Assembly (NCBI GenBank): GCA_030141605.1
Contig: JAQGDQ010000149.1
Span: 359,789-423,788, forward strand
Length of the DNA: 64,000 nt
DNA from: Tubiluchus corallicola
Taxonomy: Eukaryota; Animalia; Priapulida
Direction of reading: 5' to 3'
This document shows, piece by piece, positions 8,701-64,000 of this stretch; position 1 is the first letter of the stretch; each line of letters starts with the position of its first letter. The notes beneath the pieces are model-generated. The model made no database searches, was not told the DNA's origin, and worked only from the letters and a program-made list of their open reading frames with translations. The translations under genes and the position numbers were made by a program.

Positions 8701-11484
8701 CATGTATACGTTGCTAATTACAAACAATATTATTAACCTTTAGCACATTACTTGGCAATATGCCTTGCTGTGTTGAAGCACCACTAAGCGGAGACTCATA
8801 CCAATGATTATGCCATAAATTTCTATCAATTTTTCAATTAGGTAATATGCTTGGAATGGTGCATTGCAAAAATATCACTTTGCAAACAAGCTGCTCAATT
8901 TGCAAAAAAAAAATTATTTGTGCCATTTTTCTGGCTTTCAGTAGCATTTATTTACCGTAACATGTACAAATGGTACTAGATCAAATTTATTAAGTTATGT
9001 TTTTCAGTTGTTGCTACTGCGAGGTTATGCATTTAATCATTCAGCAGACTTCGAAACTGTAAGAATGATGAAAGAGAAACTGTGTTATATTGGATATAAT
9101 ATTGAACAAGAGCAGAAATTAGCACAAGAAACAACAGTTCTTGTTGAGTCTTATACGGTATGTGGCCTTACATTGATCTTCTTAACCATGTTTAGTCAAT
9201 GACCCTCTATCCGGATGTATATTTTTCAGTATATGATGCAGAATTTCGGTGTTATGTGGAATCTTAATTTATTTACTAAGACAAAATCTAGTTAAAGTAA
9301 TGCTAAATTTTTAATTGCATTTTTAGCTTCCTGATGGCCGTGTTATCAAAGTGGGAGGAGAGAGATTCGAGGCTCCTGAAGTTTTGTTTCAGCCACATTT
9401 AATAAATGTCGAGAGTGTTGGTATTGCAGAACTGTTGTTCAATACGATACAGGCAGCTGATATGGACACACGGCCTGAATTTTACAAGCACATAGGTAGT
9501 GTATCAATCTAATAAGTGCAACAAAAGCAATACTAAATTAGAGTCTGAAAATGTTTTGCAAATCCGCTGTGATATAAACCCAGACCTTCTGCTTTATTAA
9601 TCCAGGCATCTCTGTCTTTATGAAACAACACTTTATGTAGTTTCCTAAATTTTGATCTGTGCTTGCCATCTTAAGTTGTTTTGGTGCTTACAACTTCATT
9701 ACCTAGGCAACTGGTTAGCTGGTCAATAAATTTAAAAAATAATCAAATAGAATTGATTAAATGGTTTTGTAAAGTGTAGAAAAGGATAAAATGTTTGGTT
9801 TTCGACTGAGCAAGGTGACTAGAATTACCTCCATTCGTATAAATATTTGAGAGATCAGTGTGTGTCTGTACCTCTGAAAAATAATGCAAAACATGATTCT
9901 CAGTTTTGAGTAACTTTTCTTAGATATCATTTTCTGTCTGTTTTTGTCTATTTGTTTCTGTTGTCTTTGTAATCATTTAACAATGTCTGCCAGATTTCAA
10001 CATGAGAAGCTGCTACACATTGATGAACATTATGCACTGTTTTCCGTGTATTTAATTTTTAATTAAATCTGCTTTTATCAGTAAACAGCTGCTTATTAGC
10101 TAAATTATCGAATGATTTTCATTACCATGTTCAAACAAAAACCTGTTCCAGCATTTAGAAAAACATTATCTACAATGTGTGAAACACAGTGAAGTAGATT
10201 TGCAGAAACTATTTATTAATTTAGGCAGAATGAAGCTTTGTATCTTGTAAAGGGAAACAAATGTAGGGTCTCCGATTTTCCACGATCATGGAAAATTGGC
10301 GGAACTTACGGAGATGAGGAGCTGAAATGGAAGTAGCTACAAAAAACGGAATTGGTGCAATTTCATACTTTAAAATTTTTAAATTTAATGCGTACTAGAG
10401 AAAATTGACTTCACTTGTTACCTTTCCCCAAAATTAAGCCGTTTTTTTCAGAAACTAGAAGCTGTCTTTGGAGATTTATTTATTTTATGCAACTTGCAGA
10501 CTCACTACGCCTTTTCACTCCGTTTGTTTTTGTGTTTGCCACAAGAAATACAGGCAATAGTTTAGTGTCGTTGTAATGAATAGCAACGTGTGAAAAGGTA
10601 TCTAATGTTTATGCAAACATCATGTGGCTACGTCTTTGAAATTGTTTGTATCTATTTTTGAAATTTATTTAAACTCTATCCCTTCTTTGATCAGAATTCA
10701 AGTCTATTTATTTCAACTTTTAAAATGGTCGATGAGGATGGAGTTCGGCAAAAGAAAGGAAAACGGTCTACACCAATTGTGTGTACGACAGCTGGGGGAA
10801 AAGCCAGGCAATTTCCCAATGATTTGTATAAAGATGACGGGATACTGCTTTGTAAATTTTGTGTGCATAGCATAGATGTCGTGCATGTCTACACAATCAA
10901 ATAATCATTTAAAGGAGTAAAAAAACACTTGGCTGGTAAGGAGGTAATAACTAATATAAGTGACTGACCTCTCTCTTATAGTATAGCTATTTCAATTCAA
11001 GTTAACCCTGATAAGTCAATTTCATACTGTGAGTTCACACAGAAGCCTTTTAAATAAATCAGATTTAACATTAAGCATGAGGTTAATCTAAACGCATTTT
11101 TATACCAGCCAAATTAAATTTGGAGTAGGTTCACTATCGGAGTAGACTAAACATACCTTTTGTTTATAGATTATTTCTATAGAATTAACCTTTGGTTATG
11201 CTATAGTAGGTAAAACTACGTTTCATTATCTGATATATTTAAATTATAGTTTTAGATGATTTTTAAAAGAAAAGGTCTTTATAAAAAGAAACACAAGCTA
11301 AACAGGCTTCCAATATTCGTGGTTTCATCAGAACGTTTTTGCGAAGATTTTGTATTACACTTTGGGAAATGTGTAGTTTAGCGAATATATATATTCTAGT
11401 TGTATATATGCCACTAGAATATATATGTTCGCTAAACTACACATTTCCCAAAGTGTAATACAAAATCTTCGCATGGTATCTAGT

Positions 11485-11520
<36 letters not shown>

Positions 11521-11537
11521 ACTAGATACCATTATAT

Positions 11538-11571
<34 letters not shown>

Positions 11572-14372
11572 CCACTAGATACCATGCGAAGATTTTGTAT
11601 ATATATATATATATATACCACTAGAAAATTTGAACAAAATCAGACCCTTGTACAAAAACATTACAAGCAAGGAGTTGCACCACCATCTGGCAAAACTATA
11701 TGCAAGGTATATGTGACCAGACTTTCTGACGAACTTTTTTCTGCCATCAAAGCAAAAGGTGGCAGCAGATGCCAACATAAGTATTGTGGCCGAGGAAATG
11801 ACAGATTTTGTAGATCACAGTGTGATGAATATTATTTTTGCCATAATAGGGACTTATTACTTGGTCGATGTAGTCGATGCACCTGTAATCACGTACAATG
11901 AACCTTTGAGCCAAGCTATTATCTTAGCTTGTAATAGCTATAGTAACGGATTCTGCAGCCTACTGTAATGGCATGTTCAGACTAGCAAGTTTTCTCGCTA
12001 AGTTAACTTGCCAAGTAACTCGCAAGCTTGTTCAGTTAATGCCAGAGAGCTTGCAATTTCTTGCTGACAGTAACTCACAATGCAGCTCACGCTTAAGAGC
12101 TTGCTGTCAAAGAGAAAACTCGTTAGTCTGAACACGCCACAAGAAAACGTTCAGAAATATTTTATCTGCTTTACTTGTGAATGCTGTGCATGTTTCACAT
12201 CTTAAACCTTGTAAGTGAGATTTTTCAAAACTGGAAAGCATTTAGTCTTTTCTCTAGCTTTGTAGCCATGATCAAATCTGCCTTTTTTAAAAAGCCTGGA
12301 CGAAAAGCAAGATACTTCGAATACTTGGGTGAATACAAAGTGGAATTCCTGTTTTCAAGCAGTCAGGTTCATGCGAACTATATCCATATATATTATATAC
12401 CAAGGCTTCTTTACTGCTGAAGTAGTAAAGGGCAAGTGGTGGAATGAATCTTGGATCTTGCAGACATCCATGATGCCACTGATGAAGATATAAATCTACC
12501 ATTTATACCATTTAAGAGCTGTCAGAAATTGGAATACAGCCTTGCACAACTGGAAGGGACTTTGTAGTTTACAATACAGCAGAAGATGTGAGGGGCTATC
12601 TTTCCAGTGGTAAGACAAAGACTGTATTTTGTGAGAAACAACTGATGCTTTGTTGTCCATATTGCAGAAAGATGAGAAAACTAAAGCTATAAACCGAAAC
12701 TGCACAATGACAAACATTGGCATATCCATGTTAGAAGGCTCTATCAGTTTTTGGTTCAAGGCAGTTCATAGAGTTCTCACTCAATTTCAATGACTGTCAG
12801 GCTATTCCAGAACTCACCCATCCTTCAAATAATTTAATTAGTGAATGGCAAATCTTTATTCAGTACAACATAACAGACATTCCTAAAGGTATTGCAGCTT
12901 TTGGGAATATTTGAACCTCGCTATCCCAGTTTAATAAAAATTGCTAAAAAGTACGTCTAGTTGTCTGCTCAAGGTATAGATGTTGAACGTTCCTTCTTGA
13001 ATTGCAAACATTTGCTGCAGCTTGAAGTCTTTAACAGATGAAAACACCAAATAATAAATAATATGTACTGTAGTGGTGATGCGGAAAAATAGATTTTGCG
13101 AATTAAATGTTGGTGTTCTTATGCTATGTAAAGCCAAAAAATATGTGATAGACTACATGCTTAATTCATATATATATTTTTTTATTTACAAGCTGTCACA
13201 TATTACATAATTTGATTATAAATATTAGTTTTAGGGCTTCATACTTCTAATTTCTGTAAAATGCAATTGAAACGGAATTGACGATTCGTCCAAATGGAAA
13301 ATCGGGGACCCTACAATTGATTTATTATGCAATTATATAGAGCTAAAATTGTTTAGTACCTATGATAGTGGTATAGTTACTGTAGTAGCTGCAGTATCTA
13401 TAGGGGTAGTAGTGTTAGTGTTAGTGATTTCATGTTAATCTACGTTCATTGCATTCATAGTTGTTGTAACAATCCCACAGAAACTGATATTAAGATATTA
13501 TGTACATTTATTACAGTGTTGTCTGGAGGATCTACCATGTATCCAGGGCTTCCAAGTCGCTTGGAGAGGGAAATTAAACAGCTCTACTTGGAGCGGGTCT
13601 TGAAAGGAAACACTGAATCATTCTCGGTAATAGCTCACCCTTGTTACATTAGCTATAAGTACAATTTCAAATGGAGGTAGGCGCGTCTACCCTCAAAAAT
13701 CGAATCGAATGTTTGGCCTTCGAATCAAATCAAATTGAATGTCAAGATTCCTATTCGAATCCAGTGCTAAATATTTCTGATAAATTCCAAACCATTATCA
13801 AACAAGCAATGTGCACAAAAACTTAATTTAGCTGCGAGTTAATAGTAAGAACTAAAATAATTTTGCTGATTGCCTCATGTTTCAAATGTTTTTATGATAG
13901 AGAACAAGTGTAATTAAAGTGTTAAACTACATGAAATTGCAATTTTAGGTTTGAATGAAATTCAAACTAAAAGCCTCGTTTGAATCAAACATTCGGTTTT
14001 CTGCCCTAGTTTCAACATTAGCTGTTTTTTAAGCTAGCCTGTTCACAGTTTTTTTGTGGCATGAGTTTCATGCAGGAAAACATGGTAATATGGAATTACT
14101 GCACATTAGTAGTATTTTTCTTTATGACTCATAGCTTTTATCTCTATAGAACTGTTCAGTTACAACCATCACAACTTCCATGCTTCATATTGTTACAGAA
14201 ATTTAAAATTCGAATTGAAGATCCTCCACGACGTAAGCATATGGTATTCCTTGGTGGTGCTGTCTTAGCAGACATTATGAAGGATAAGGACACATTTTGG
14301 ATGACTCGGGCAGAATATCAGGAAAAGGGTTTGCGAGTACTGGAAAAACTGGGTGTTGTTAGCTCAAATTAG
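2741..14372 (+). CDS. ACTR2: Actin-related protein 2 (Arp2/3 complex), 9 coding exons, 395 aa
   Basis: Exons 2741-2788, 5125-5235, 6775-6990, 7725-7797, 8108-8244, 9008-9157, 9327-9495, 13517-13626 and 14199-14372 join in frame (1188 nt). The translation [28 protein letters not shown]...[27 protein letters not shown] is unmistakably Arp2. Confidence 0.97.
2930..3350 (-). mobile_element. CR1-like LINE 3' fragment (decayed)
   Basis: Minus-strand peptides [27 protein letters not shown] and [19 protein letters not shown] match CR1/L2 ORF2 C-terminal motifs. Frameshifted. Confidence 0.75.
3690..4805 (-). mobile_element. CR1-like LINE reverse transcriptase fragment (decayed)
   Basis: Minus-strand motifs [45 protein letters not shown] and RDLG, with stops and frameshifts. 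Confidence 0.85.
10264..13313 (+). mobile_element. Decayed full-length hAT transposon with CGGBP1-like transposase, in ACTR2 intron 7
   Basis: TIRs TAGGGTC(T/C)CCGATTTTCC at both ends, flanked by CAAATG and CAATTG (possible 6-bp TSD, 1 mismatch). Remnant peptides: BED-finger-like [18 protein letters not shown] (~10810-10865), [20 protein letters not shown] (~11780-11840), and a hAT C-terminal AFW..YPSL.KIA..DVERS segment (~12895-12995). Confidence 0.8.
11969..12139. mobile_element. PIF/Harbinger-like MITE nested in the hAT element
   Basis: 28-bp TIRs TGGC(A/G)TGTTCAGACTA(G/A)C(A/G)AGTTTTCTC, flanked by TAA and CAA (mutated 3-bp TWA TSD). Confidence 0.7.
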
Positions 14373-19700: not shown

Positions 19701-22700
19701 CCTGGTCCCGAGTCTTCTACCTTGTTTTCTCTGCCGTATGATAAAAATGAGGAAGAAATATTAAATGAAGTATTAAGGTAATCTTAAATCACAAATCTCT
19801 GTTGCTTTTTCTGACTTTTAGTGTATGCTTCTGGTATATTGATTGCTCATGAATTTATAGATTTCTCTTCCCCCTCTTCCCATTAAAGCAATATAGTGAA
19901 TTTGCATATGTAAGCATAAGTATATTTATAAATAATTATATTATTAACAATAGGTGACTTACTTTGAGATTGAAGTGTTTTGACCCAATTAACCAACTGA
20001 TTCAATTAGCCAACGGGTGTACCCTATTTCTACTATACAAGTATGAGTCATGACTCATCACCTTAGTATGTATTACAATGGCTTTAAGTGATTTTTAGAA
20101 AGGAATTAATGTCAAAATTCCTATGTGCAATGTTGTAAAAATACTAATTTATATAAGTGAATTAATAGAAAAAGAAAAGAAAAAATTACACAAATCTGAT
20201 TGTTACCACTAAAAATTACAAAAATTCATGCCAGGTTGGTTGCTTCATTTCTTCACGAAGAAGTTGGTTTATTTTTCTAATGATAAAAACTTTGAAAATC
20301 TGTTTCTGTATACTGCACATATTGACACAAAACACCAAGTTCACTTTGAGCTGCAGCTGGTGACGACCTTCAAAAATAAATCACTGGGCAAGTGATTAAC
20401 TGTTTAGCTTCCAGAAACAACGAGGTTAACTGCAGTGGACAAGCGGGTGACATATTCAAAGCAAAACCACTACGCTAAAATATTTGTGCCTGTGACAAAT
20501 GTACTGTACCTGCTTACAAGCAAAGCTGTACCTAACGTGACTGTTTCTACCTATATTATAGTGCACAGATTCGAGGTAAAGATGACATAACGGTAATAAA
20601 AGTTCTTTGGGTCCACACAAGTGTCTTATTTTAAGTATGTGAAGGAAAAATATTGAGTCAATTGTGCAGAATAATTTAAATCAATTACAGACACTTGTTA
20701 TTTACATTTGAATAGGAGCAGCCCCTACCACACGTTTTTGAGTCAATTAGGCGACTGATTATATTAACCGTGAGTCTAATAAACGGCACCTGCTGTGTAT
20801 ATACATATATGTCGTATATATATATATATATATATATATATACTTATAAATGAAGAATTCATTTGTGATGTTATTCTGAACTTGTTCCTTGTGTTTATGT
20901 AAAAATATGTAAAAAAATGTTTATGTAATTCTTCATTGATAATCTCTACTAGACTTTTCCGTTATTACCTTGAAAACCTGGTAATTAATAGTGTTTTATG
21001 TAGCTTTGCATATCAGGAATAATGTTTTCCTTTTTTATAGTTTTTATTAGTCCTAAACTAATAGTTTCAGTTTTTGTGTTACTAAATAAAGTATTTAGTT
21101 TAGTAAGTTGTAAGTTGTAGGTAGACTATAAACTAGCTTAATTAGGAATCTTTTGTTTTTTAAGTATTTTCCAAAGTAATAGTAGCTTTTTGTTTATCAA
21201 AATGATGTATATGTGTAACCAATAGCAATTTTGCTCTAGGTTGTCAAAAGAAGAATATGAGAGAGAAAAGGGTAAAAAACAAGGCAAGAAAATGGTCGAA
21301 GAGGAGGCATTGGAAAGAGCAATAGCTAATTCTAACGATGAAAAGCTCAAATTGGAAGAGAAGGCCCGTAATGAACAAGAATTGTTTGATAAGGCAAGTG
21401 GTACTGTTTTTGAAAAAATACACACGCTACATTTTCTAGTCAACATTAATTAGTTAATAGCAAAACAGTGATAAAAAATTTGTTGCTCATCAAAAGTTAA
21501 CCTTGGGTTGTCATGCTTACAAGGCTGGTACACTGCCAACTAGACCACCAATTGTCAGTTGGAAAGCAATGTTATTCTAATCCCTTTATAATGACTGAGC
21601 CTTTTCACAACAGCATGCCATCTTGTGCAGGTGTGCTATCCTATGTGTGTACACGGATGAAGAAGCAACACAGCAAAACCACAAAATTTCTCCTACTTAG
21701 TACTCATTGGTGAAAAAAAGAAATACTCTTCATAATTATTCTTTTTTAATATTAGTCAAGATTTTGTTTTTTGTTTTTACAGTTCAGAATTAATGTTATG
21801 TACAACTCTTACTAAGGATAATTTTTATGGTATAACTGCAACCATAGATCACGGATACCTAATTACATATCTTTCAGTATTTTATGCATAATCTGGCCCT
21901 TCAGCAATAATGCTTTTGTATTATCTTACGGGCAAATGAAGTGTATAAGTGTAAAATACATTGGGCCTAACGAAGTAATCTTTTCAATAGTGGATTTGAT
22001 TCATTAAACTCACTTGAATATCGTATATATTAATTTCGGTGGTATGGGCTTAAAGTATATAATATATACATGTATATATATGATATAATATATGTAATAT
22101 ATTACTAGCAAAGGCCCCGCAAAAAATTTTAAATACACTTATAATCAATATAATACGTGAACATCCTACATAGTCCTCATTTATAACACAAAACCAGTAG
22201 CAGCTTTTACTGAATTAAAGTTGTAAGGTTATAAGCAGAGTATGAGTATAATGAATGACGTCAGAACAATGGCTTTGCATCAGCAGTTTTCCAAGAGAAA
22301 ATTGCCAAAAATGGAACATCTAGTTAACTCATTGTCATTCCTCTTGGTGGGCGTGTCCTAAAATATAGCCTACATCATCATGTAGCCCTGTTCTTCCTCT
22401 TTCTAAAGAGCCATATATCTCCTTCCAAGAGTCACACTAAGCACCGCTAGAACGTTTTTTCAACAGGCCGTTTGGCCAAAATTTCCGGGAAAACGCCCTT
22501 TGCCGGGATCTGTGTTCCCGTCGTGAATTCTAAATATGCCTACTACACCCACCGCTGAACGGGCTATCTATCCATGGCTGGCACCGCCGTCGGCCCATTC
22601 CCAATTCTCCAGAAATAAGAAACTCATTTTTTGGCCATTTTTTGCAAAACTTGTGCCTCTTATTTCTGGAGAACTGGAATGGGCTGGGGGCTGTGCTGGC

Positions 22701-25700
22701 AGTGGTTGAATAAACCGTACAATGGTGGGTGTAGTAGTCGTATTTAGAATTCGCCGGAGGGTCACTGTGCCCCACAACGGGTGTTTTCCCGGACCCAACT
22801 CCTGATTTTTTCAAAAGTTTTTATGAAGCAGCCTGTAGAAAAACATTCTAGCGGCGCCTAGAGAACAAAATAAACTTTAATGCTGATTGTAGTAAATATA
22901 ATTCGTTTATAGAGTGATGTGGGTTTCTTATCAAAATGTTTCGTAAGCTCACTCACAAACTAATATATCATGAATTTCTGCAAAAGTCAATTATATATTC
23001 ACCATAAAATATAGAAGATAATTGCTTTCTAGCTAAGCTGCAGTTCTCCTATGAAAACATAACTTTACATTGACAATTCTATGATAATTATATGGTAATA
23101 ATGACTAACTTAATTATGGATACCTATATAACTGGGGCCATGGTAATAATATATTTTATAGGCTATGGAGTTGTCCATTACAGGGAAGATTTCAATTATA
23201 GTAGTACATTAAATATAAATTAATTATGACTACCTGTTACCATATAATAATCATAATTGCTTTCATAGGCTATAAAGTTATCCATAACAGAGAAGATTCC
23301 AGTTACTCTAGCACCAACCATCAGTACTTCTGTAATTGAAACAGGCTCATCCCATGGAAAAACTAAAAAGGCAGCAAAATCCACTGCAAATCAGCATTCT
23401 GCAAAAGATCTACCACCTATCTCAAAGTCGGTGAAATCTACTGCAGGTCATCCTGAGAAAGTAGCCGTAGAGCAAACATTTGTCTCAATGTCTTCGTAAG
23501 TTTAATTTCTTTGGCAGTTTGCCATTATTCTAGCAAATTATAAATTTTTGTAGTAACTCCCTGAATTATAGCTCAGAGCTGTATAGCGTTTTACAACTGC
23601 AGTTTATTTTATATAAAAAATGGCTGTTTACATTAAAATATACATAAGGCTAGACTCTTAGGTATTACATGATCTTATACCATATCACTCGGTGTCTATG
23701 TTTAGCATTGAAGAAAAGAATTTGCAGCAATAAAATCCAAGTTCTAAACTATGTGTATTCACTTAATTATAATAGACCATGAATTTTTAAAACAGGCTCT
23801 GGATGCTAGAAAAACTGGGGTATTTGTCAAGCATCTGTGGTGCACTATTCTTGGCTTAACAAGACATGATCTGTACTCAAAATCAATGGTGGTTTCATGT
23901 TTCAAGAAATGATTCTGTCTAGCTGTGCTTTGTATTTCACTATATAACAGTTTTTCTGATGTATATTGATTTGAACTGATAAAAAAATTATTGCTAATGT
24001 TGATTTTTTGGCAGGGAAGCAAATAAGTCATCTATTTTTTCAAAGAAATCTGGGCAGAAAAAGAAAGATCAAGATACTCAGCAAAATGATACATCAAAGC
24101 AAAAGAAGCAGCTTGTGAACTTACCAAAAGAAGAAGCAGTAACAGTAAAAACACCAAAGGTTTGTGCTGAGTATTATTTTTTATTTCCAGATGTACATAA
24201 TACATAATACCTAAACATTTTTCCTCTATAGACATGGCATGTCATGGCAGTATCATCTTGCAAAATTTAAGGACTATTTTCTTTTCCTTTTTATAGATTA
24301 TATTTTAATTTCACTAAATTTTATATTGTTTTTTATAATAATATACCATTTTAAGTGTTAACGTAATTTGTTTGCCTGCAGATTTGAATTTTTAATAATG
24401 TAATGATTATACTTGTCATAGTATTTTCATGAAACCTAAGCCTTGTACTATAGGCAATACTTTCACTTTCAATGTGGTGTTTAATGATCAATTTCTTCTC
24501 TGCCGTTGAAGCTATTTTTAACTGTGGAAGTCAGTTCATTACTGTGGACTTTTTGATATGAAGATTTTAAATACTTATAAATAAAAAAATACTACCCACA
24601 ATTAATGATCAATTTCTTCCCTGTTGTTGAAGCTATTTTTAACTGTGGAAGTCAGTTCATTACTGCAGACTTTGTAATATGCAGATTTTCTATTGTTCCT
24701 TGACTGTATAAGGTGTGTAAGTGATTGATCCAGGTAACTTGATTTGATGTTTTCTCTTTCAAAATGCACTGCACACTTGGTGACTATTCAAAGTTTTATG
24801 AGTTAAAGATGAATAGTGTGTGCAATCACAGTGAACAGTTCAAGCTCTTAATTATTTATGATTTCTGTATGATTTCTGTAATTAACTACATCGAGTTATA
24901 TTTGTACGGTATTAGTATATGTAGTTCTAACTGAAATGTCAGCAATATGGAAGATGTGTGATACAATTAGTAACATTATGCCAGTCAATAACTGTGTGTA
25001 GGTTCTACTGCTTCTTATAGCTCAAGATTATATATAATACATGTATGAACTGCAGATTGTCACAATATTATAAAACGTGCATTTTACTTGTTTTAATGTG
25101 ACATCAGTATGTCACTTCATAGTTTTTGTTAGTTTTAGGAGTTTTTTAAGGATGTCGTAATAGCAAGAGGAAGAGACTAGCTATAATCCAGCTGTAGGTT
25201 AAATTGTCTGTGATTAAATCTGTTATTCAAAATCTTTTGACTTTTTAGGAAAAACAAACAAGCTTAAATTCAGCAAGTGGCTCAGCTAGCTTGGGAAAAT
25301 CTTCACATTCACAACAACTAGAGAGAGTAAGCAAACCGAATACTAAAGTTTACAATTAATGTTCCTGTTTCCTGTCAAATATGCTATGGAAAAATGCTCA
25401 TTGTCCAATAGTACAGTCAAACTTCGTTATACAGCTTCTCGCTATAACGCCAACTTTTGGCATGTCGAGATTTCCACAATATATTAATTATAGGGCATCA
25501 CCAATCTCGCCTGCCGCCATCTGTCAACGTATCCGCTATGCCAGAGGTATTTTACATGATAAATCTACCATATTATAATGCCCACTCATTCATCGAAACA
25601 GCCCTCAGTCCACTCTGCCATACAGATGTAACTATATTGCCTTTTATGCTGCTGTTAGAAACTTTATCACTCATTAATATTGCAGACATCAGCAGCATCC

Positions 25701-26899: not shown

Positions 26900-27270
26900 A
26901 TTAGTGGGGGGTGCTCAGAAAACTTTTACTATTGTTTTAATATTGTTTAAAACGAAAGAAACAGTCACAGAACTTATTTCTTGGGAATGACTAAATTAGT
27001 TAAATTTTCTGTAAAACAAAGTAACCGAAAAAATTATGAATTAAATAGAATGGCTGGAAGCATGATAATCATCTATTAAGTGTAGAATAGATGATTATCA
27101 TGCTTCCAGCCATTCTATTTAATTCATAATTTTTTCGGTTACTTTATTTTACAGAAAATTAGATTTATTTACTCATGGCCTCTGCATTTCCAAGAAATAA
27201 GCTCTGTGGCTGTTTCTTTTGTTTTAAACAATATTAAAACAATGGTAAAAGTTTTCTGAGTACCCCCACT
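26900..27270. repeat. Long inverted repeat (fold-back) with 8-nt loop at 27078-27085
   Basis: Inner arms ~27004-27077 and 27086-27160 are reverse complements with one mismatch. Outer arms ~26900-26990 and 27185-27270 are clearly related but more diverged. Confidence 0.92.
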
Positions 27271-27888
27271 ACTTACACAACAGGGCTGGCACTGCGTGAG
27301 CGACACTCTACCTAGCATGCAGCTTCTTATCTGCATATGTGGGCATGGTCGCACGCGCACAAAAGCCAACTGTGACGCTCACAGTGCTCTAGTTCCATAC
27401 AAGGATTTACAAGTACATGCAAGTATAACGAAAGAATTAAAGAAGAGTCATTATATTGAATCTCTGTTTCTGTTTCCTGTTCTCCTGATCTGCCACTGGT
27501 CTCCTGTTTTACTAAGAAAAGTTATTTTCGATACGAACTGATTTTATACAACTGTTGAGTTTTTGTCGTAGAAGCTAGAATACTCAAAATACTTTTTTGC
27601 ATAATCCAAATATTTAAAAGCAAAGCAAAGCTGGGTGAAACCATAGTATGCAGTGGTCACTAAAAAATTTAAAGATCCTAGACGTGACGTGATGTTAAAC
27701 TAAAAATTGTCAAAACACAAGATTGCCAGACTCACTTTTTGCAGACATTTTGTACTCTTTGTTCTGCTGACAAGCTACTAGTGGTTTGTGTTTAAATTCT
27801 TTGTCTATAATAGACACAGGAGCATTTGATTATAAACAGATGCTGTTACATAACTTTCCAGATTTTGTTGTATTCAAGTCAGCATGAT

Positions 27889-29987: not shown

Positions 29988-49833
<19,846 letters not shown>

Positions 49834-53150: not shown

Positions 53151-54496
53151 GTACTGTGTCACTCTGAAATATTGCTACAATATTTAGATTTGCATCAGTA
53201 GTGTGATAGTTGTATTATTGAAAACTCCAAAAAAATAGATGTACCCTCATCTATGGAGTTAGTGTGCGGCCGATGTGGTCTGATCTATTGCACACCCATA
53301 CATATAACAATAACAAAAATGAACCTGCTAACGAACACTTAATTGCTTGCATAGCTTTTTATCCTTGAAGACATGAAAACATTTAATCATTGTTCAAATT
53401 GCAACCTTAGAATTAAATGCTTTGAAATCCCGTGAAAGCACATTCCTAGTAAAATCTCCCGTAAACAAGCGTTTCATTTTTTGCTTCTTTTTTCGTTGAA
53501 GCACTTGACAAAAAAGTCGTCTGGTTAGATAGAGGAGTTCATAAGCCTCCCAACTAAGTAAAATACGACAAAATGAATTTCATTGCCATGGTCACTTGTA
53601 AAAATAAAAGGGAGCTGATTACATTGTACACTGGCGGTTAGTAGATTGTAGGTGAGAGTTATTGGTTGTTTTAACTTCAGCTTATTTAATATTAACTATC
53701 ATTGTCCACCAGTGGTTGGTGTTTACACGTTGTATAACAAGAACGCTACCTTCAAAACCATAATAAATGTTCTCGCCCAAGAGTGTAAATTGGGCGCCAA
53801 CTCTTAGGTGTGCTCTATCACCGGACATCATGGTGTGAGCTTAGTGGCTTGATGTGGATCCTACATGGCCTACTTGCAACAGTGTTGATGTACTGCTGAT
53901 TTTGTGCCCCCAGTGAAATAATAGGGCTAATCTAAATTCTAAACCAATGCAGAAGGAGTAGGCATAGAAGAATCTTAATACCAGAACAGACAAAAAGGAC
54001 ATTAGAGATAAAGCTTATTATGCTACCACTGAAATGTAATAATTATTGTAAAAGCAAGTTCAAAGAAAATCTAGGGTGCCGCTATGTGGTAAAGAAGAAG
54101 ATACATCAGAGCATCTTTTCAAATGAAAAATGTGTTACTAACCATAGAAATAAATCTTCAAAATCTGATTGAGCCAAAAGATTTGTTCTCTTTAGCAAGT
54201 TGGTAAGATGCGGCAAAGATGTAAGTTTGATTTCTTCATACTTCATAATATTATTATACATTTTCATTATAGCAGTTAATTATCCTTTTGACATTGAGTT
54301 AGCAGAAAATGTTTTTATTTGCTTCAGATAAAATGAAGTCGATTCGCACATAATATGTCAGTCAGTCAGTCAAATATGTCATCATGTGATAGTGATTTTG
54401 TGATGAGATGATGATTGCCCATTTTGGACAATAAAAAATCATAAATTACATCTAAAAGACTGTTGGACTTGTATTTAGCACATGACACGCACATTA

Positions 54497-54829
54497 ATTA
54501 ATTTTCTGTTGTTGACTGCTGAATTCTAAATTCACATTTACAGTCTCCAGATATCACTGACAAAAGAATTAAACTATGCTACTCTCTCAGCAGCATTTGG
54601 ATTAAATATAAAATGTTAATATCAATTATCCAGTTTACCCTAGTTCCCTTGTTTATAAATGCATATTTACGCTCTTCTTATTGGCCATATTGTATTTGCA
54701 ATCTTGCCAGTATAAAAAACAGTATTGGTATCAGAACTATTATTTTTTCCAGAATAGTAAATTTCTGGTATAGACATTTCCAGAATGTCTAAAATTTTGA
54801 CTCATCACAGTGTGCAAATTTACAAATGA
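54497..54829. repeat. Copy 2 of the ~335-bp direct duplication
   Basis: Matches 48182-48522 but lacks the short tandem insertion (TTTACTCAT) seen in copy 1. Confidence 0.93.
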
Positions 54830-55065: not shown

Positions 55066-55909
55066 TTACTACTAGTGCTATAGTAGTAGATTCGTAGTTC
55101 GTACCATTGTAGAATCACTAGCGTGGTGTATATTTATAATAATAGTTTTTTATATACTCATTATATATTTTTAAGCGGATAATCAAACTTGCTAATTTAT
55201 TTCTGTGGCAGTTTGGATTCGTGTCCCTGGCATCATTAAATTTAAATAAAACTTTTAGTTTTAGTTTTAAAGTTCAATTTCCCTTGTGTACTCCCCGTAA
55301 TTAATATAACATACCGTAAAACGATGTGAACAGCGACAATTTTACATTCGGACTGCCATGATTTTTTTGTTAGTTTTATTCAAAATTGTGTTCGGTACGG
55401 TAGTTCTATGGATGGCCACATATCTTATTCTTAATTCATATTAACTACGGATTTGAGGGTGTGTAGGGACAGCCTTATTTTTAGTTCTTGTATCCATCTT
55501 GCGTTGCATGAGGTGAAAAAGGGCACAACTGAGAATGTGTTAAAAAGAACGTGTTTTAAAATCAGTTACTTTGATATCTAGGATAAATTTACAAAGCTCG
55601 GTTAGATAGTACTGTTTTTAGATAGCGCACACTTTTACATACAATCAAACATCAAAATTTGTCAATATCTCCAATTGACCTCATAGCTTAGAACTAAACC
55701 CAACATTTATGGGTGAGCTGTAGCTCTCATAATTTGATCATTATACTATGTTGTTCTTGTATTGTGCTCCAGCAGGAAGTCGTTTAGACATGCATGCATC
55801 ATCTGCTATGCTGATTCACCCCATTGTTTATATCAAACTGAGTCTAAAATTGCTCAAAAGTGGACAGAAAATAGAGACAGTCAAAACTGAAAAAAGTCAT
55901 CAGATATTA

Positions 55910-56152
55910 CAGTATACTGTTAAGCAGGGTATTACTGAAGATAAATCACTCTACACTGCAGCTTTACAATGATATAGAGTCCTTGGTATATAGCACATGC
56001 ATCGGGTTGGTTTATATAAAATTATAATGAACTGTACATTGCTTATTATTGTAATGCAATAGGAGCTGTAACAACTTTCTTAGGGTTTGTCCCTATTCTC
56101 TCCCCTGTCACGATTCACCCAGTTTCATGGTACCCTGCTTAACAGTATACTG
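55910..56152. mobile_element. Tc1/mariner-type MITE
   Basis: Perfect 22-bp TIRs CAGTATACTGTTAAGCAGGGTA with TA on both flanks. Confidence 0.85.
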
Positions 56153-56848
56153 TATTCTACCATACTGCCTTTATAATAAAGTACAAATGTAGGTGAAATA
56201 TTTTATTATTAAATATTAGTTAAATAGCTAATCTACTAATCTTTGTACTACACTCAGGCCATAGATAATTGTCATTGTTGAGTGTATTTACAAAGAAGTC
56301 CTTTAAAGTGAGGTCAACATGGACTATGAGCTATCTCCACTATACAGTATAGGTTCTTCAATCAAGCATACAGATTTAATATCAAACTAACATATTTTGT
56401 GTATAATAAATAATAAAAAAAACGAGACCACCTTTGGTGCTTTAGGTTTGGACTACATCCTAAGCAAACTTATTAAGTTTATTATTAACACTTAGATGTG
56501 GTTTGACGTTAATGCACATACATAATTGACATAATAGGTTTACGTCCCTGCTTTATTTTTTGACAATGACAAGTGATATGCTGTGACTTATGATTTAACA
56601 AATTTAAAACTATGAAGTGCAATAACTAAACATAGTCAAGCTACAAATGTAAATTACAAATCTCCAATTTTTCATTGTGTAATAGTACGGTGGTATGTTA
56701 TTGCACTGTAAGTTTTAATTTATTTACTTATTTTTGTTTACTTTAGAATATTTCTGCCTGAATCATAAGTGACATTAAATGGATCTATGCTACATGGATT
56801 GAATGTGCACTCTGATTCGACATTACTTGTGAGGATCTCAGACTCAAA

Positions 56849-56901: not shown

Positions 56902-57676
56902 GTATGTTTTAATTCTGTTTCCTTACACACATGCATGCATATCCTATGTGCTATTCTACTTACTCATCATTCTGATCATGTATATTTTTCTAAATACACC
57001 AATATACAAAAATTTGTACAATTACTTATAAAGTTTGAAACACATGAAGATGTGTGACTATAAAATACCACAGTCTGTTAATTCGGGTGCTAAAATGTTA
57101 CGTTATTTCAAAGTTGCTAGGGTGCTTTAGTAGCAAACTTTTAGTGCAGAAAATCTGTGTATTTTTTCTACATTACTTTTTTTTGGATTAGCCTTTTTGT
57201 CATTCATAGCATAGTAAGAGAAAAAACTAATTTTGCCTGTTAATTTAGTTGGGGGGAAACACAGAAATTCTTGAGCATTAAAGCAAGCTCATGACAGCAA
57301 GAAGGGCAAGTGTGTAAGAAGGCCAGTTCTAAATTGACAGAAAAAGATCAAACGAATATGTGTATACATTATATATATATATATTTTAACGAATCCAGGT
57401 CCGTCTCAGGATGTAGAGAATGGTATACAAGCTGTGAAATGCTGTAGCAGACGAGAAAAGTTAAAAGATCCGAAGTACGAGTGTAAAATAAACTTAGTGC
57501 ATAACTAGTAGCTCCGAAAGAATGACAGATGAACAGACTTTTGTATAAAAATTAGCAAGCCAACAGCATTCACCTTTACAGACAGAAAGGCCAGGTTGGA
57601 ATAGTCAAATTACGGCATACATTCTGTTTTATACAGGTACATTTAGATTACTGGGCTTCTCAACCGTAACCATTAC

Positions 57677-58197
57677 TGATGTGGATGCGCCCAGTCCAGG
57701 CAATAAAACGGCAAAAATCAATGTTGAACTGTGCGATAGACCTGCAATTTATTAAAATACAGGATTACAAAAGGTGCTTTGGAATGTGCAAAAGCTTATT
57801 ACCATTTAGACAAAAAGTTTTAAGAAGTTTTAAGAAGATTGAAACAAATTATTACTTTATGACTCTATGAAGCAATTTTAACCGATTTAAACGTTTAACT
57901 AATTATAAAGGTAGATGTGACTTACATTTACTGGTGACTTGGCTTGAAAATGCAACTAGTTAATAGACAAAAACAATGAAAGTATCACAAAACGGAATGA
58001 ACAGTATAGCGGCAACAGAAAGTGTGACTACGTATAGAAACAAGTTTAATTGATAGGTGGCGTGTACTACTAAAAGCGTAAGTCACATGACTAAGGCTAG
58101 CTTCCTTTTTAAACAGTTTTGCATTTGCATATTTGTAAATTTGTAAAAAGAAAACAAATAATGATAAAATTTTTGATTGAATTGCTTGACACCAACA
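57677..58197 (-). repeat. 3' LTR (521 bp, TG...CA)
   Basis: On the minus strand it starts TGTTGG directly after the PPT and ends ACATCA exactly where identity with the copy at 63736 stops. Confidence 0.9.
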
Positions 58198-58212
58198 TCT
58201 GGCTCCCCCAAA
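58198..58212 (-). other. Polypurine tract
   Basis: Minus strand TTTGGGGGAGCCAGA lies between the pol stop codon and the TG of the 3' LTR. Confidence 0.75.
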
Positions 58213-58220
58213 ATGTCTTC

Positions 58221-61200
58221 TTAAGAATTTTGACAAGTGGCTCCCTCAACGGGAATTGAACCTTCATCATTCTCCACAAGTAGAACTAGTTTGGAGATCG
58301 GTCTGTCAAGTTCTGTATCCTGTGTTTTGACTCTCACGCTCCGGACTTGATCCTGACAGTCTGGATAGGTCCTAATAACGCGACATAATTTCCAAACGTT
58401 TCTAGGTTGATTGTCATCCATGATGAGGCAAATGTCACCGATCTTCAGTGAGCGCTTGTGATGAAGCCATTTGGATCTCGACTGCAGGCTTTGCAAATAT
58501 TCTCTCTTCCATCGAGTCCAGAATTGCTCCATCAGATACTGGGCTCTTCTCCATTGCTTGCGACAGTACAGGTCCGGTCGCTGGAAGTTTCCTGGTGGAG
58601 GAAGAACCACTCTTGTTTTCCCAGTCAAAATAGAATTGGGGGATAAAGCAAAAGTTCCTGGTCGCTCAGTGCTTCAACTGTAATTGGTCGACTATTCACG
58701 ACTGCCTCTACTTCTATCAACAGTGTCCTAAGAGATTCATCTGTGAGAAGTGCAGAATTCTCTTGTAGCAAGGCTTCAAGAATGCGTCTCGAGGCCCCAA
58801 TCAAACGTTCCCATGCGTCTCCATGGTGACTGGCTGATGGCACATTGAATTTCCAATCTGCTCCATACTGCAACAGATAATTGCGAATTTTTTCGTTGTC
58901 CATCTCTTTGAAGCATTCCTTTGTCTCAGTTATGGTTCCCACAAAGTTGGTACCGCAATCACTTCGCATTTGCCTAATTGGACCCCTTCTGGCAAGGAAA
59001 CGACGTAGTGCCATAATGAAGGAATTTGTGTCTAGTGATGCAGCTAACTCTAAATGGACAGCTCTGCTTACCAAGCAGGTAAAAATGATGCCGTAGCGTT
59101 TTAGAGTCTTACGGCCTTCTCGAACAAAAAACGGTCCAAACGCATCCATGGCACAATATGTAAATGGCGGTGATGGCGTGAGACGATCGACTGGCAGGAC
59201 CGACATCTTTTGCTCTTCATGTGGGCGGCGTAACTTACGGCAAGTAATGCAGTTTCTGATGACGTTGCGTACATTTGAATTGAGATTGATTATCCATAAT
59301 CCTGCAGTTCGAATCTTGTACCACGAAGAACAGCGTGATTCTAAAGTGTCAATAAGCCTGGTAGAGTCATGTGATGCAGCGTCAATTGTCCTGACTGATT
59401 TCAATTCGGGATCTGTCTCCGCAATGCTAAATGACTGCATGCTAGTGTTCTTCCAAAATTCATCTTCGGCATAAAGCATTTTTGGTCCACGAAACCAAAT
59501 ATTGTTGTTGATAAACTGTTCTACTTGCTGACCTCGCGAAGCCACGTCACTCGGGTTTGATTTAGTATCAATATAGTGCCAATGCGACGGGTTCGATTTG
59601 TCTAGAATCTGCTGCACTCTGTTGGCGACGAAAATCTTAAACCTCCTTGTTTGGTTTGCTATATAGCTCAACACTACTTTGGAATCGCTCCAATAATAAT
59701 GCTGCACATTTTCATAGTCCAGCTCGTGGTCCAACATACTGGCAGTGTTCACTGATAATACTGCAGCGGTGAGTTCGAGTCTAGGCATGGTCACATGCTT
59801 GACAGGTGTGACACGAGCTTTACCTTGAATTAAGGTACAGTGTATCTGGTTGGTGCTATCAACAAGCCTTAGGTATGAACATGTACCATATCCGACCTCA
59901 CTTGCATCAGAAAAGTGATGTATCTGGATGTCCTGTATTTCACCAAAATCATCTGGGTGAAAACAGCGAGGAATTCGTAACTGCTCTATTAAAGGCAAGC
60001 TTCGTCTCCAGATTTCCCAGCGTTGTCTAACATTTTCTGGCACTGACTCATCCCAACCAAGACGATCACGCGTGAGTTCTTGCAGTATAATCTTTCCTAT
60101 CAACAAGGCAGGTGAAATAAGACCCATTACGTCATAAATGCTGTGGATCGTTGAAAGTATGCCTCGTCGAGTCAAGGGTGTGTCATTCAGCCGTATGCGG
60201 AAACCAAAGGCGTCGTTTTCTATATACCATGACACGCCTAGGGCATACTCTATCTGTTCCTTGTAAGCGTTGATCGTTTTGCTTTCCCGGTTCGCACGAT
60301 CTTCAATCGGAATGGCGGCTATGATCTCTGATTTGTTAGCAACAAACTGTGTTAATCTAAAATTTCCTTTCTGACAGAGATCCTTTAACTGTGTCGCTAT
60401 AGCAATATGGCTATAGCTATAGCTATGGCATCATGAGTTGTAGAAGCAAATTTACAACAGTCGTCCACATAGAAATTAAACAAAATTGTTTGAGTCACAT
60501 CGAGTGGGAAGGCAGTGACATTGTCTTTAGCTGTCTGCTGTAATGCGAAATTGGCACATCCTCCTGATGATACTGCCCCAAACAAGTGGACTAGCATTCG
60601 GTAGTCACGCGGCGGATTTTTTGGGTCACCCTGGTCCCACCATAAAAATCTTACGTAGTCTGCTTGGTGGCGTGGAATTGCAACCCTGTAGTACATCGAT
60701 TGTATGTCGGCCATGAAAGCTGCTGGTCCTTGTCTAAAACGGCACAAGACTCCCAATAATGAGTTGGTTAAATTTGGCGCTTGCAAAAGTTCGTTGTTCA
60801 AGGAAGTTCCCATGAACACGGTGCTGCAGTTAAACACAACTCTGATTTTCTTCTTGCGCTTATGGTAAACTGGGTGGTGGGGTATGTACCACACTTTTCC
60901 TGCATCTGGGTACGGCTCTGAGGGTGGCACCTTTTCGGCATATCCGTTTTCTAGCATCTTATTCATGAACGCAGTATATTCGTTTCTCAGCTCTTCAGCC
61001 TGAAACCTTTTGGCTAAACTACGCATGCGCTGTTCGGCTTGTACCCTGTTATTTGGCATAACTGGATTATCCTTCTTGAATGGCAACGGCACAACATATT
61101 TTCCATTCTTGTAACAAGTCTGCGCAGTAACCTTGCTCATGAAAAGCTTTTCCTCTTGAGAATCACCATAACCATTAGCGTCAGTTGCATTCTGAACGGC

Positions 61201-63708
61201 AGTAGGGATGCTAAACTGACAAGACGAAATTTCTTCGGTGGCGGCATCTGTGCATATCACCCGGCTATAGCTGGATCTAAGACCTTCCCGTGACGCTTTG
61301 CCAATTACGCCCTGTACCGTCCAGCCTAAACGCGTAAGAACAGCATAACAATTAAAATCTGGGTGGCTAATGACTTGCAGAGGCTCCATTGCCTTTGGTG
61401 TGTTCATGCCTAATAGTAAACCAACTTCAACATTGTGCATTATTGGATGGAGTGATTTCGCTATGTCCCGCAAATGCCTCAATTCTTCCACTTTGTTAGG
61501 ATCTGGTATCTCGTTTCTATCTGCAGGATAGAACTCTTTCGTAAACAAACGTGGCAACTCAACGACGTTGCTACCATTCAAGCGCGAAACGCATAAACCA
61601 TCAATTCCTTGTGATTTAATTAAATGAGTCCCACTAAGTGTGCGTAGGCGGATGTCAGTATCCTGCCCGGTAGCCCCTAATTCTTCAGCTAGCTCTTCCG
61701 AAATGAAGCCGTCATTACTACCTGGGTCTAAGAAGCAGTAGGCTACGCGGCTATTATGAACGTTATCTTTGTGAAAGATTTTAACTGGGACTATTGCCAT
61801 TGAAACTACGCTGTCGGCTGAAGTTACGTTACTAGTGTTTACGCGAGAAATTGACGCAGTCGAAGTTGATTGATGTTGATTTGTAGGCTTAGCTTCACGT
61901 ATTGCATCCGTTTGTAACTGTGAACTATCGCTGCTTACACCTGACTGTGATTGCGTGTCGATATGAAGCACCGTGGGATGCGTGCGCTTGCATATATCAC
62001 AATGTTTCTTAGATCTACAATCCTTATACGCATGAAAAGTCCCATTCAAGCATCCAAAACAAATTTTATTGTCTTTGACAAACTTTCTTTTGGCATCGTA
62101 GGAAAGCTGACTGAACTCTTTGCATTTATCTAAACGATGATTAGTAGCTGAACAATAGAAACAAGGCCTTTGTTTTAGAGTTTGACCCTTTGACATATTA
62201 TTAGAGTCAATAGCGAATGATGACGATTTGCGACTACCACCTTTGGAAGTCTTAAATGTATGCTCTTCCCCTTTATCTGTAGATTTTGCCATAGCTTGTC
62301 GGCTAAGAATAGGATGAGATAGACCTTTCGTCCTGTCACTGATATGCTTAACTACCTCAGTGAATTTCGGCGGTCTACCATAACGCTTTTCTATTTTCTG
62401 CGCATGCTCAAGAACTTGATCTTGCATACGATAGGGTAGCTTAGAACAAACTAATTGTATAGTACACGGGTCATCTAGCGATAACAAATATGCATTATGA
62501 TGCATAGATGCTCCACAATTGTTCAGAAAAGCAGAAAACTCTTCAACTGAATCGACGTCATCCATTTTTGTGATAGGCTTCCAAGATCTCAATTTAGTTT
62601 TAAATGCTGCGGCAGCAACTGACGAATTCCCGAATTTAGCGTGCAATGCGGCAACGGCATGATCGTACGGCTTCCTATTATTCTCTGATGCTTCAACTAA
62701 TGTCTGTGCCTTTCCTTCAGTGTACTGAACCAAATATCTGTACAACTGTAATTGATCGGTTATGCAAGTTTCAAATGTCTGTTTAAAAACTGTGATAAAG
62801 GCGTTATATTTTGTTACGTCATGTCCATTAAATTTCACCAATTCAGGCATCGGTAATTTTTGCAAACTGACTATCTGATTAAGACATTTCGCTTGATCTA
62901 GAAAAGCTTTAGCAATTAACTCGTTGCTCTGCTGTGGTCTTGGATCCTGGACAACAGCAGATTGACGTTGCGGTGAATATGGACGATTGCCAAGTGACCT
63001 ATTCGACTGGAACGACCGGTTTGAACCGACTGACTGACCGCCTGACTTATCATCATCAATGTCGTCTTCCATTTCTGCAGACAACAGGCTTTTTCGTAAC
63101 TTGACCTCATTTAATGCTCGCTTATTTTCAATTTCGTTTAATTCTTGCTGAATTTTAGCTTCAGCCATGCGCCTTTTGATTTTGGCTTCCTCGTCATTTA
63201 ATTCTAGGGCTTTCTCAATGTATGCTTGTGAGCGACGGCTAACGTTACTAACTCCAGATTTAACTGAATGGGCTTGTGACCTTGGCTGAGTTTTAGTTAG
63301 AGGTGCAAGGCTAATATCTTCTTCACTAATCGGCCTACTATCCCGGGCAAACGAATATGCATTGAACGGCTCAATAACTCGTGGTCGATGGCTACTGTAG
63401 TCCGGCATTCTTTGTGATTGCTCTCGTGAGATGTCTACTAACGTGCGCTGCTGTAAGTCCGCAACAGGTAGTTGTTGACCTTGACCATCAGGTGTCTGGG
63501 ATTCGCTTATCGGCTCAGGTAAATCGTCTATTATGGCGTCGCTTGTTCTCTCGGCTTCATGGCGGGCGTCTCTCGCGTCCTCCAACATCCTGGCGATGAG
63601 TTGGTCCTTAGTGCCCTCCTCTGGTAGTCCATAGTCCATACATAAGTTTTTCAAATCGGCTTTGTGCATCTTACGCAAGTTGCTCTCCGTGAGTGCTAAT
63701 TGAGCCAT
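58221..63708 (-). pseudogene. Disrupted BEL/Pao gag-pol polyprotein
   Basis: N-terminal SAP-like motif; knuckles CFYC..H..C, CFGC..H..C and CDIC..H..LH; protease FLDPGS; RT ADIQSMY, LFGAVSS, YVDD; RNase H FSDASE, PRLEL, WSDS; integrase MDAFGP, SDCGTNF, WERLI; C-terminal FWTRWKREYL. Broken by a 20-nt insertion near 60400-60420, a 1-nt deletion near 58661 and an apparent in-frame deletion near 59315. Confidence 0.93.
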
Positions 63709-63722
63709 CTCTACACCCCTAG

Positions 63723-63735
63723 CAGTAAATGTCTA
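63723..63735 (-). promoter_or_regulatory. Non-tRNA primer-binding site (TAGACATTTACTG)
   Basis: It directly follows the CA end of the 5' LTR, lacks the TGG needed to pair with tRNA CCA, and is complementary to the predicted spliced LTR transcript. Confidence 0.7.
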
Positions 63736-64000
63736 TGATGTGGATGCGCCCAGTCCAGGCAATAAAACGGCAAAAATCAATGTTGAATTGTGCGATAGAC
63801 CTGCAATTTATTAAAATACAGGATTACAAAAGGTGCTTTGGAATGTGCAAAAGCTTATTACCATTTAGACAAAAAGTTTTAAGAAGTTTTAAGAAGACTG
63901 AAACAAATTATTACTTTATGACTCTATGAAGCAATTTTAACCAATTTAAACGTTTAACTAATTATAAAGGTAGATGTGACTTACATTTACTGGTGACTTG
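63736..64000 (-). repeat. 5' LTR (partial, continues past window)
   Basis: 265 bp align without gaps to 57677-57941, with three transition differences. Confidence 0.95.

Follow-up and report, generated by a model that had tools for sequence, protein, structure and literature searches.

A BEL/Pao-type retrotransposon of Tubiluchus corallicola with a primer-binding site complementary to a predicted splice joint in its own LTR

Results

A broken BEL/Pao-type element at the end of the window

The 64-kb stretch of Tubiluchus corallicola DNA analysed here (the window) carries an LTR retrotransposon on its minus strand, and the end of the window falls inside the 5′ LTR of this element. The in-window part of the 5′ LTR spans 63739..64000 (3′ end favoured at 63739, possible at 63736), and the 3′ LTR is complete (57680..58197, 518 nt, or 521 nt if its end is 57677). 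Together they form a 265-nt direct repeat of 98.9% identity, with differences at 3 of the 265 shared positions. The gag-pol of this copy is broken into three reading-frame pieces, all on the minus strand. Piece 1 (60397..63708) contains SAP-like, DUF1759, zinc-knuckle, protease-like and reverse transcriptase (RT) regions and ends at the break. Piece 2 (58625..60430) contains the Pao Peptidase_A17 region and the integrase core, with a shorter stretch between the two than in the relative L098, and piece 3 (58221..58673) contains DUF5641. DUF1759, Peptidase_A17 and DUF5641 scored above the Pfam cut-offs, the rve and aspartyl protease matches fell below them, and Pfam detected no RT in the window piece. 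At the Gag N-terminus (~63590-63680, minus strand), a SAP domain matched weakly, just below the cut-off; PF02037 is also present in several homologs. All close homologs are Pao-type polyproteins, and the nearest, named from fish, cnidarians, echinoderms, molluscs and crustaceans, are mostly ~30–40% identical over the region searched.

The element agrees with the ICTV description of Belpaoviridae/Semotivirus (PMC8742986) in its LTR length (518–521 nt, for a described range of 0.2–1.2 kb flanking gag-pol), in a polypurine tract that precedes the 3′ LTR (58209-58198, minus strand, with similar tracts in relatives) and in the order Gag-PR-RT-RH-IN with Pao-type Pfam domains. However, the primer site in that description is 18 nt long and complements the 3′ end of tRNA-Arg or tRNA-Gly; neither the window element nor the sampled relatives have such a site. 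The element is thus BEL/Pao-type by its proteins and departs from the ICTV description in its priming.

Other features of the window were recorded alongside the element. The insertion-target DNA (57400-57676) is covered by many contigs of sequencing run X1, as repeated sequence would be. Perfect 24-nt inverted repeats, 199 nt apart, at 55908-56154 resemble a small non-autonomous DNA transposon, and self-BLAST revealed a dispersed 348-nt repeat of 95% identity (48175-48522 and 54491-54829) as well as several long palindromic repeats (repeat entries 26902-27271, 11340-11600 and 22484-22793). A large coding exon of a PP4R3/SMEK-type host gene (38834-39502, minus strand; Pfam PP4R3, E 1e-71) has canonical splice sites at both ends, indicating a spliceosomal host.

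The primer-binding site complements the joint of a predicted LTR intron

An earlier note on this DNA had ended the 5′ LTR at ...CACATCA, followed by a site that does not start with TGG. The second part stood, as no TGG-starting site follows either candidate LTR end of the window element. The first part probably did not: the LTR more probably ends at ...CCACA (63739; 57680 in the 3′ LTR) than at ...CATCA (63736). An end at 63739 gives TGT...ACA termini, and X1 contigs that run into other DNA leave the LTR at 63738 (one contig), 63739 (two) and 63740 (one piece), with no exit at 63736 among those listed. Counter-evidence comes from the TCA that follows, which is common to both window LTR copies. 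Among relatives, the spacer after ACA/ATA measures 0–5 nt and begins with TCA or TTCA in three.

Beyond this end lies a 14-nt non-tRNA primer-binding site (63723..63736, minus strand), and within the LTR a 184-nt GT-AG intron is predicted (63801..63984, minus strand; GTAAGT ... TTGCAG; 3′ LTR copy at 57742..57925). The donor GT at 63984-63983 (57925-57924) and the acceptor AG at 63802-63801 (57743-57742) were found on the minus strand as the earlier note had given them, with the same spacing. Splicing would join CAGTAAAT, which ends at the donor (63985..63992, minus strand), to GTCTAT, the first bases after the acceptor (63795..63800, minus strand); in the 3′ LTR these halves of the predicted self-primer lie at 57933-57926 and 57741-57736. 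Read as its reverse complement, 63723-63736 is identical to the joint CAGTAAAT+GTCTAT, whereas the longest contiguous match to the site in the whole window LTR is 10 nt, so that both lengths claimed at the outset were reproduced by our LTR match search. The pairing had also been described as flush with the LTR edge. This is probably wrong, because with the LTR end at 63739 it would stop ~2 nt before that edge.

The splice sites fit a GTRAGT donor and a YAG acceptor (GTAAGT and GCAG). The acceptor has a weak pyrimidine tract (6/12) because an AATAAA sits in it, and one YTRAY match at −14. This AATAAA is a predicted poly(A) signal inside the 3′ end of the intron (63807..63812, minus strand, −12 from the acceptor; 57753-57748 in the 3′ LTR copy); from the donor to the end of the LTR there is no other AATAAA/ATTAAA. 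Upstream, the TATA-like TATTAA (57960..57965, minus strand), a putative promoter element, is located where the earlier note saw it, 26 nt before the 5′ primer half. A 7-nt match to the primer site, TGTCTAT (57969-57963, minus strand), overlaps this box upstream of the donor and is probably due to chance. When the target was shuffled, none of 20,000 trials restricted to consensus-filtered splice sites attained 12 nt, and 3 of 5,000 trials that allowed any GT..AG pair attained 14 nt. In one X1 contig, the donor block and the acceptor-to-end block are kept and the interior between them is different. Alignments of X1 and of a second run, X2, which is presumably RNA, listed no 184-nt skip; X2 did not reach the LTR, and contigs such as those of X1 speak neither for nor against splicing.

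Relatives carry split matches to their own primer sites

We collected 96 loci (77 clusters) of related elements from genome and metagenome contigs, to which two more were added later; two scans of viral contigs yielded no relatives. The BEL/Pao elements L001–L016 and L098, some of which have both LTRs, come from contigs that were binned with bacterial genomes but are most likely animal host DNA. One LTR (L003:1561-3189) is at least 1.6 kb long with internal tandem repeats.

In a boundary-anchored set, comprising the window element and 14 loci, the LTR end was fixed from repeat pairs, with the BLAST-defined end shifted by eye in L024 (10 nt) and L042 (7 nt). The splice filter at first demanded at least 7/12 pyrimidines, which excluded the window acceptor, and was relaxed to 6, at which this acceptor passed, with all pairs rerun. 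A split match of 11–15 nt to the element's own LTR at filtered splice sites was present in 10 of 15 elements. Across families, 3 of 208 pairs reached at least 10 nt, all between families with near-identical primer ends. Three of the five misses (L013, L031 and L042) have a contiguous complement of 11, 10 and 12 nt, respectively; L005 has, by eye, a consensus joint with one mismatch; and in L045 the boundary was misplaced and a split match lies 20 nt past the BLAST end.

A boundary-blind test gave an own split match of at least 11 nt in 32 of 74 loci (25 of 58 families), that is 43%, compared with 101 of 1500 random cross pairs (6.7%). Match length peaked at 11 nt. The other 42 loci stayed below 11 nt, and several of those inspected lack part of the LTR. 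When the flanking dinucleotides were left free, split matches of similar length were common, and GT..AG was top or tied among the 256 dinucleotide pairs in only 4 of 15 elements. Length alone is therefore weak proof, and the case is made by splice consensus together with family specificity.

These numbers bear on whether the matches could be accidental, since AT-rich LTRs offer many GT..AG pairs between which short split matches could arise at random. The cross pairs that reach 11 nt in the blind test and the decoy dinucleotide pairs, which often tie or exceed GT..AG, are what such an account would expect. Against it are the excess of own over cross matches in both the blind and the anchored test and the compensatory changes between related loci described below. 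Chance is already largely refuted by the two tests, and we consider it extremely improbable as an explanation.

For a closer look at the splice sites, we took the 40 blind matches of at least 10 nt, set 6 aside because their family was already represented and removed a further 10 that by eye looked like chance matches or misassignments (L002, L005, L021, L022, L037, L049, L068, L069, L071 and L085), leaving one match for each of 24 families. As this set was selected by eye and had passed the splice filter, its consensus counts pertain to the selected families: donors were GTAAGT in 12, GTATGT in 4, GTGAGT in 3, GTAAGC in 3 and other in 2, and the acceptor was YAG in all. Predicted introns range from 76 to 612 nt, and the primer halves in relatives measure 3–9 and 4–11 nt. 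An AATAAA/ATTAAA follows the acceptor in 20 of the 24, at 8–143 nt downstream.

Upstream of the primer, past a small bulge, a second helix of at least 4 pairs is found in 12 of 25 elements compared with 64 of 600 cross pairs, which suggests that the RNA often begins upstream of the primer, unlike in Tf1. A transcription start exactly at the CAGT of the window LTR, which the earlier note had considered compatible with the TATTAA, is unsupported. By eye, no fixed-distance TATA or initiator motif was evident upstream of the relatives' primers. A GGGAC/GGGAT-like word just upstream of the primer is common to L006, L047, L056, L058, L062, L075 and L083. In L001, L006, L056 and L062, three bases are bulged out and a second helix pairs beyond the primer site.

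Primer sites covary with predicted splice joints between families

Covariation between families had been set beforehand, in the earlier note, as the decisive test of self-priming through a spliceosome-assembled primer, and its outcome supports that proposal. Primer sites differ between families, with 20 distinct split primers among the 24 selected ones, and every site fits the splice joint in its own LTR, not the joints of the other families. Within one cluster, L001 and L002 differ on the donor side (TAA versus CAC), and their primer sites read TTA and GTG accordingly. Between L018 and L020, one T after the acceptor differs, with the matching A in the site. In the sequences compared, both changes are compensatory.

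Several primer sites of relatives contain GTTCRA, which resembles the T-loop motif of tRNAs. This would suit a primer that comes from the host, either a tRNA half or some other small RNA, in which case the LTR match would be a coincidence or of secondary importance; the same holds for the tRNA-Arg or tRNA-Gly that ICTV gives for BEL/Pao (PMC8742986) and the tRNA halves that prime some Copia lineages (PMC6317226, available excerpt). Nevertheless, TGG is missing from the 5 nt that follow the LTR in 14 of the 15 anchored elements; the remaining one, L045, is the element whose split match lies further on. The sites also vary by family, tracking their own LTR joint. We found no tRNA gene in the 64-kb window and no Rfam match in 57400-64000 at E up to 1. 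Priming by a host RNA appears very improbable.

Intron-bearing and intron-less forms coexist among relatives

The intron-bearing L027 and the intron-less L049 both read GGTCAACGTG...TTACCTATAT around the primer, so that one has the intron and the other lacks it at the predicted point, and in both the site matches the element's own primer. L042, the RT sister of L027 with 79% DNA identity over 3.8 kb, is also intron-less. Contiguous primers of 10–12 nt were found in L013, L019, L023, L026, L031, L035, L042, L046, L049 and L069. From their DNA, these loci look as if their primer were ready-made without an intron, and the intron-less L013, L023, L026 and L042 in particular look like plain Tf1-type self-primers. 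Contiguous self-priming within the BEL/Pao superfamily was not found in the literature searched.

In a quick-search RT tree of 95 rows, built without bootstrap or outgroup, split forms occur to either side of the midpoint, and 5 changes are required to account for the contiguous label, of which at least 3 are forced by well-supported branches. L027 is placed among intron-less relatives, which fits one gain or several losses of the intron, and as the tree has no outgroup it does not give the direction. Comparison of 5′ and 3′ LTR copies within families for a precise intron-sized gap yielded three gapped pairs, none recognisable as the primer intron.

The contiguous forms raise the question of whether splicing is needed at all. 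Elements such as that of the window might self-prime from unspliced RNA, through the contiguous match or with both halves paired in a three-way junction, and the intron might serve only expression or poly(A) control. The 10-nt match of the unspliced window LTR equals the contiguous primers of some intron-less relatives, such primers exist in about ten loci, and the intronic AATAAA gives the intron another job. On the other hand, the halves in relatives are mostly too short to act alone, and in 24 families GT and AG consensus sites mark the exact position of the split. The computed duplex energy of the window element is −18.2 kcal/mol for the spliced 14-bp duplex versus −11.8 kcal/mol for the unspliced 10-bp duplex. 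Predicted pairing probability is 0.67–1.0 in the spliced leader and at most 0.01 in unspliced RNA, although folding models disfavour long-range pairs. We regard self-priming without splicing as quite unlikely.

A model for a splice-built primer

Because the primer site of the window element matches no tRNA end and exactly complements the joint left by intron removal, the element likely primes in cis; the recurrence of this pattern, with different letters, in about two dozen distant relatives makes it likely that the primer is built by host splicing. That the window element primes in cis with a primer assembled by host splicing is, in our judgement, probable. The split-primer feature itself, as a pattern in DNA, is real and common to a wide branch. 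Splicing, start site, cleavage and all other RNA-level steps are what we infer from it.

In the proposed model, transcription would begin upstream of the donor within the 5′ LTR, and splicing would remove the intron, which lies near the cap. Folding then predicts a duplex between splice joint and primer site that stops ~2 nt before the LTR edge. On the Tf1 analogy, a cut after GTCTAT, probably by the RNase H of the element, would leave a 3′-OH, and extension from this cut would give a strong-stop DNA of ~58 nt. The intron, whose survival through reverse transcription the earlier note left unexplained, is kept in both LTRs, so its template must be unspliced, and under cis priming this template would be the 3′ copy. 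The 3′ LTR copy would be polyadenylated with the intron retained, and strand transfer in the short post-acceptor stretch could restore an intron-bearing LTR. If instead a spliced 3′ end were copied, an intron-less lineage with a ready-made primer would result, a form that is seen among the relatives.

What could make the two copies behave differently? In the window family, the 5′ copy would lose its premature AATAAA through splicing, and termination just past the acceptor would be limited to unspliced 3′ ends. As the sole hexamer after the donor, the intronic AATAAA would explain the 5′/3′ asymmetry of this family. However, the hexamer after the acceptor in 20 of 24 relatives means that this poly(A) explanation of intron retention does not generalise. 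Relatives of this kind would need another bias, such as preferential splicing of the cap-proximal intron, or else a primer that a short spliced RNA provides in trans.

In the latter case, the 5′ LTR or solo LTRs would give rise to a short transcript that, once spliced, would pair with unspliced genomic RNA. As that RNA would be the template, the intron would be copied without any difference between 5′ and 3′ copies, and differential splicing would no longer be needed. Priming in trans requires the same split complement, and the hexamers downstream of the relatives' acceptors could end such a short spliced RNA. In the window element, by contrast, the only post-donor hexamer is intronic, so that a spliced RNA would read on into the primer site. 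Pairing in cis is predicted at high probability, and known self-primers work in cis (PMC7175516, available part). A primer in trans is unlikely, and we favour the splice-built primer acting in cis.

Discussion

Self-priming is known from other LTR retrotransposons. In Tf1, the initial 11 RNA bases anneal to the primer site and RNase H cleaves between positions 11 and 12, according to the available text of PMC7175516. In the excerpts at hand, Tf1 and Tf2 of Schizosaccharomyces pombe and the Tf1/sushi group likewise take the primer from their own LTR RNA and have a non-tRNA site just past the 5′ LTR. The Tf1 primer of 11 nt (PMC7175516, same excerpt) has the length at which split matches in the BEL/Pao relatives peak. 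Tf1/sushi elements are Ty3/gypsy elements with chromovirus proteins, whereas the window element carries Pao-type proteins and is not a member; by analogy, we propose that it works like the Tf1 group without belonging to it. It differs from Tf1 in two further respects. In the DNA, a spliceosomal-type intron interrupts its primer, with 10 nt that match contiguously and 14 nt only across the intron, and, to judge from the upstream helix in 12 of 25 elements, the primer may not be formed by the first nucleotides of the RNA.

Plant Tcn1 (Ty3/gypsy) and TAR/Houba/Osr-1 (Ty1/copia) elements are predicted self-primers with an LTR complement of at least 10 nt and a site 0–5 nt after the LTR, as stated in the available part of PMC6317226. 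This spacer range equals, on that excerpt, the one in the BEL/Pao relatives. However, the Tcn1/TAR lineages were found as contiguous matches and the window primer is split; a search for contiguous matches would miss a primer split by an intron.

Parts of the arrangement have been noted elsewhere. The formation of the RNA 5′ end, by start-site choice, decides reverse-transcription competence in Tf2 (PMC5341516, available excerpt), and maize LTRs give spliced transcripts whose significance the authors call unclear (PMC13192763, available excerpt); in these excerpts, neither is tied to the building of a primer through splicing. Fungal GalEa elements and bivalve TRIMs are described, in the accessible text of PMC5445492 and PMC6934838, as having no canonical site. 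The accessible parts of PMC3601003, PMC8220671 and PMC4558846 contain nothing further on splice-built primers or BEL/Pao self-priming, and no mention of priming or splicing turned up in PMC3118150 or of tRNA priming or splicing in PMC554778. In the freely accessible literature searched, outside Repbase, GyDB and subscription journals, we found no paper on either subject.

The primer types described for LTR retroelements are a whole tRNA, a half tRNA and a contiguous self-primer (PMC6317226, available part). A splice-assembled primer, if true, would add a fourth to these. The ICTV statement on tRNA priming would then need correction for a BEL/Pao branch with proteins in fish, cnidarians, echinoderms, molluscs and crustaceans, failed searches for primer sites in such elements would be explained, and a simple rule would be available for locating their primers. 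Such a primer also poses a puzzle, as an RNA that contains two copies of one intron has to splice the first while retaining the second.

Overall, we think it likely that a large and old animal BEL/Pao branch requires the spliceosome for the initiation of reverse transcription: the primer would be absent from the DNA and made at the exon–exon joint of the 5′ LTR, the 3′ copy would keep the intron, and intron-less, Tf1-like lineages would arise repeatedly. If this is true, splicing would license replication, build the primer and, in the window family, delete a premature poly(A) signal in the same step, and transposition would be tied to host splicing as a control point that is possibly tissue-dependent.
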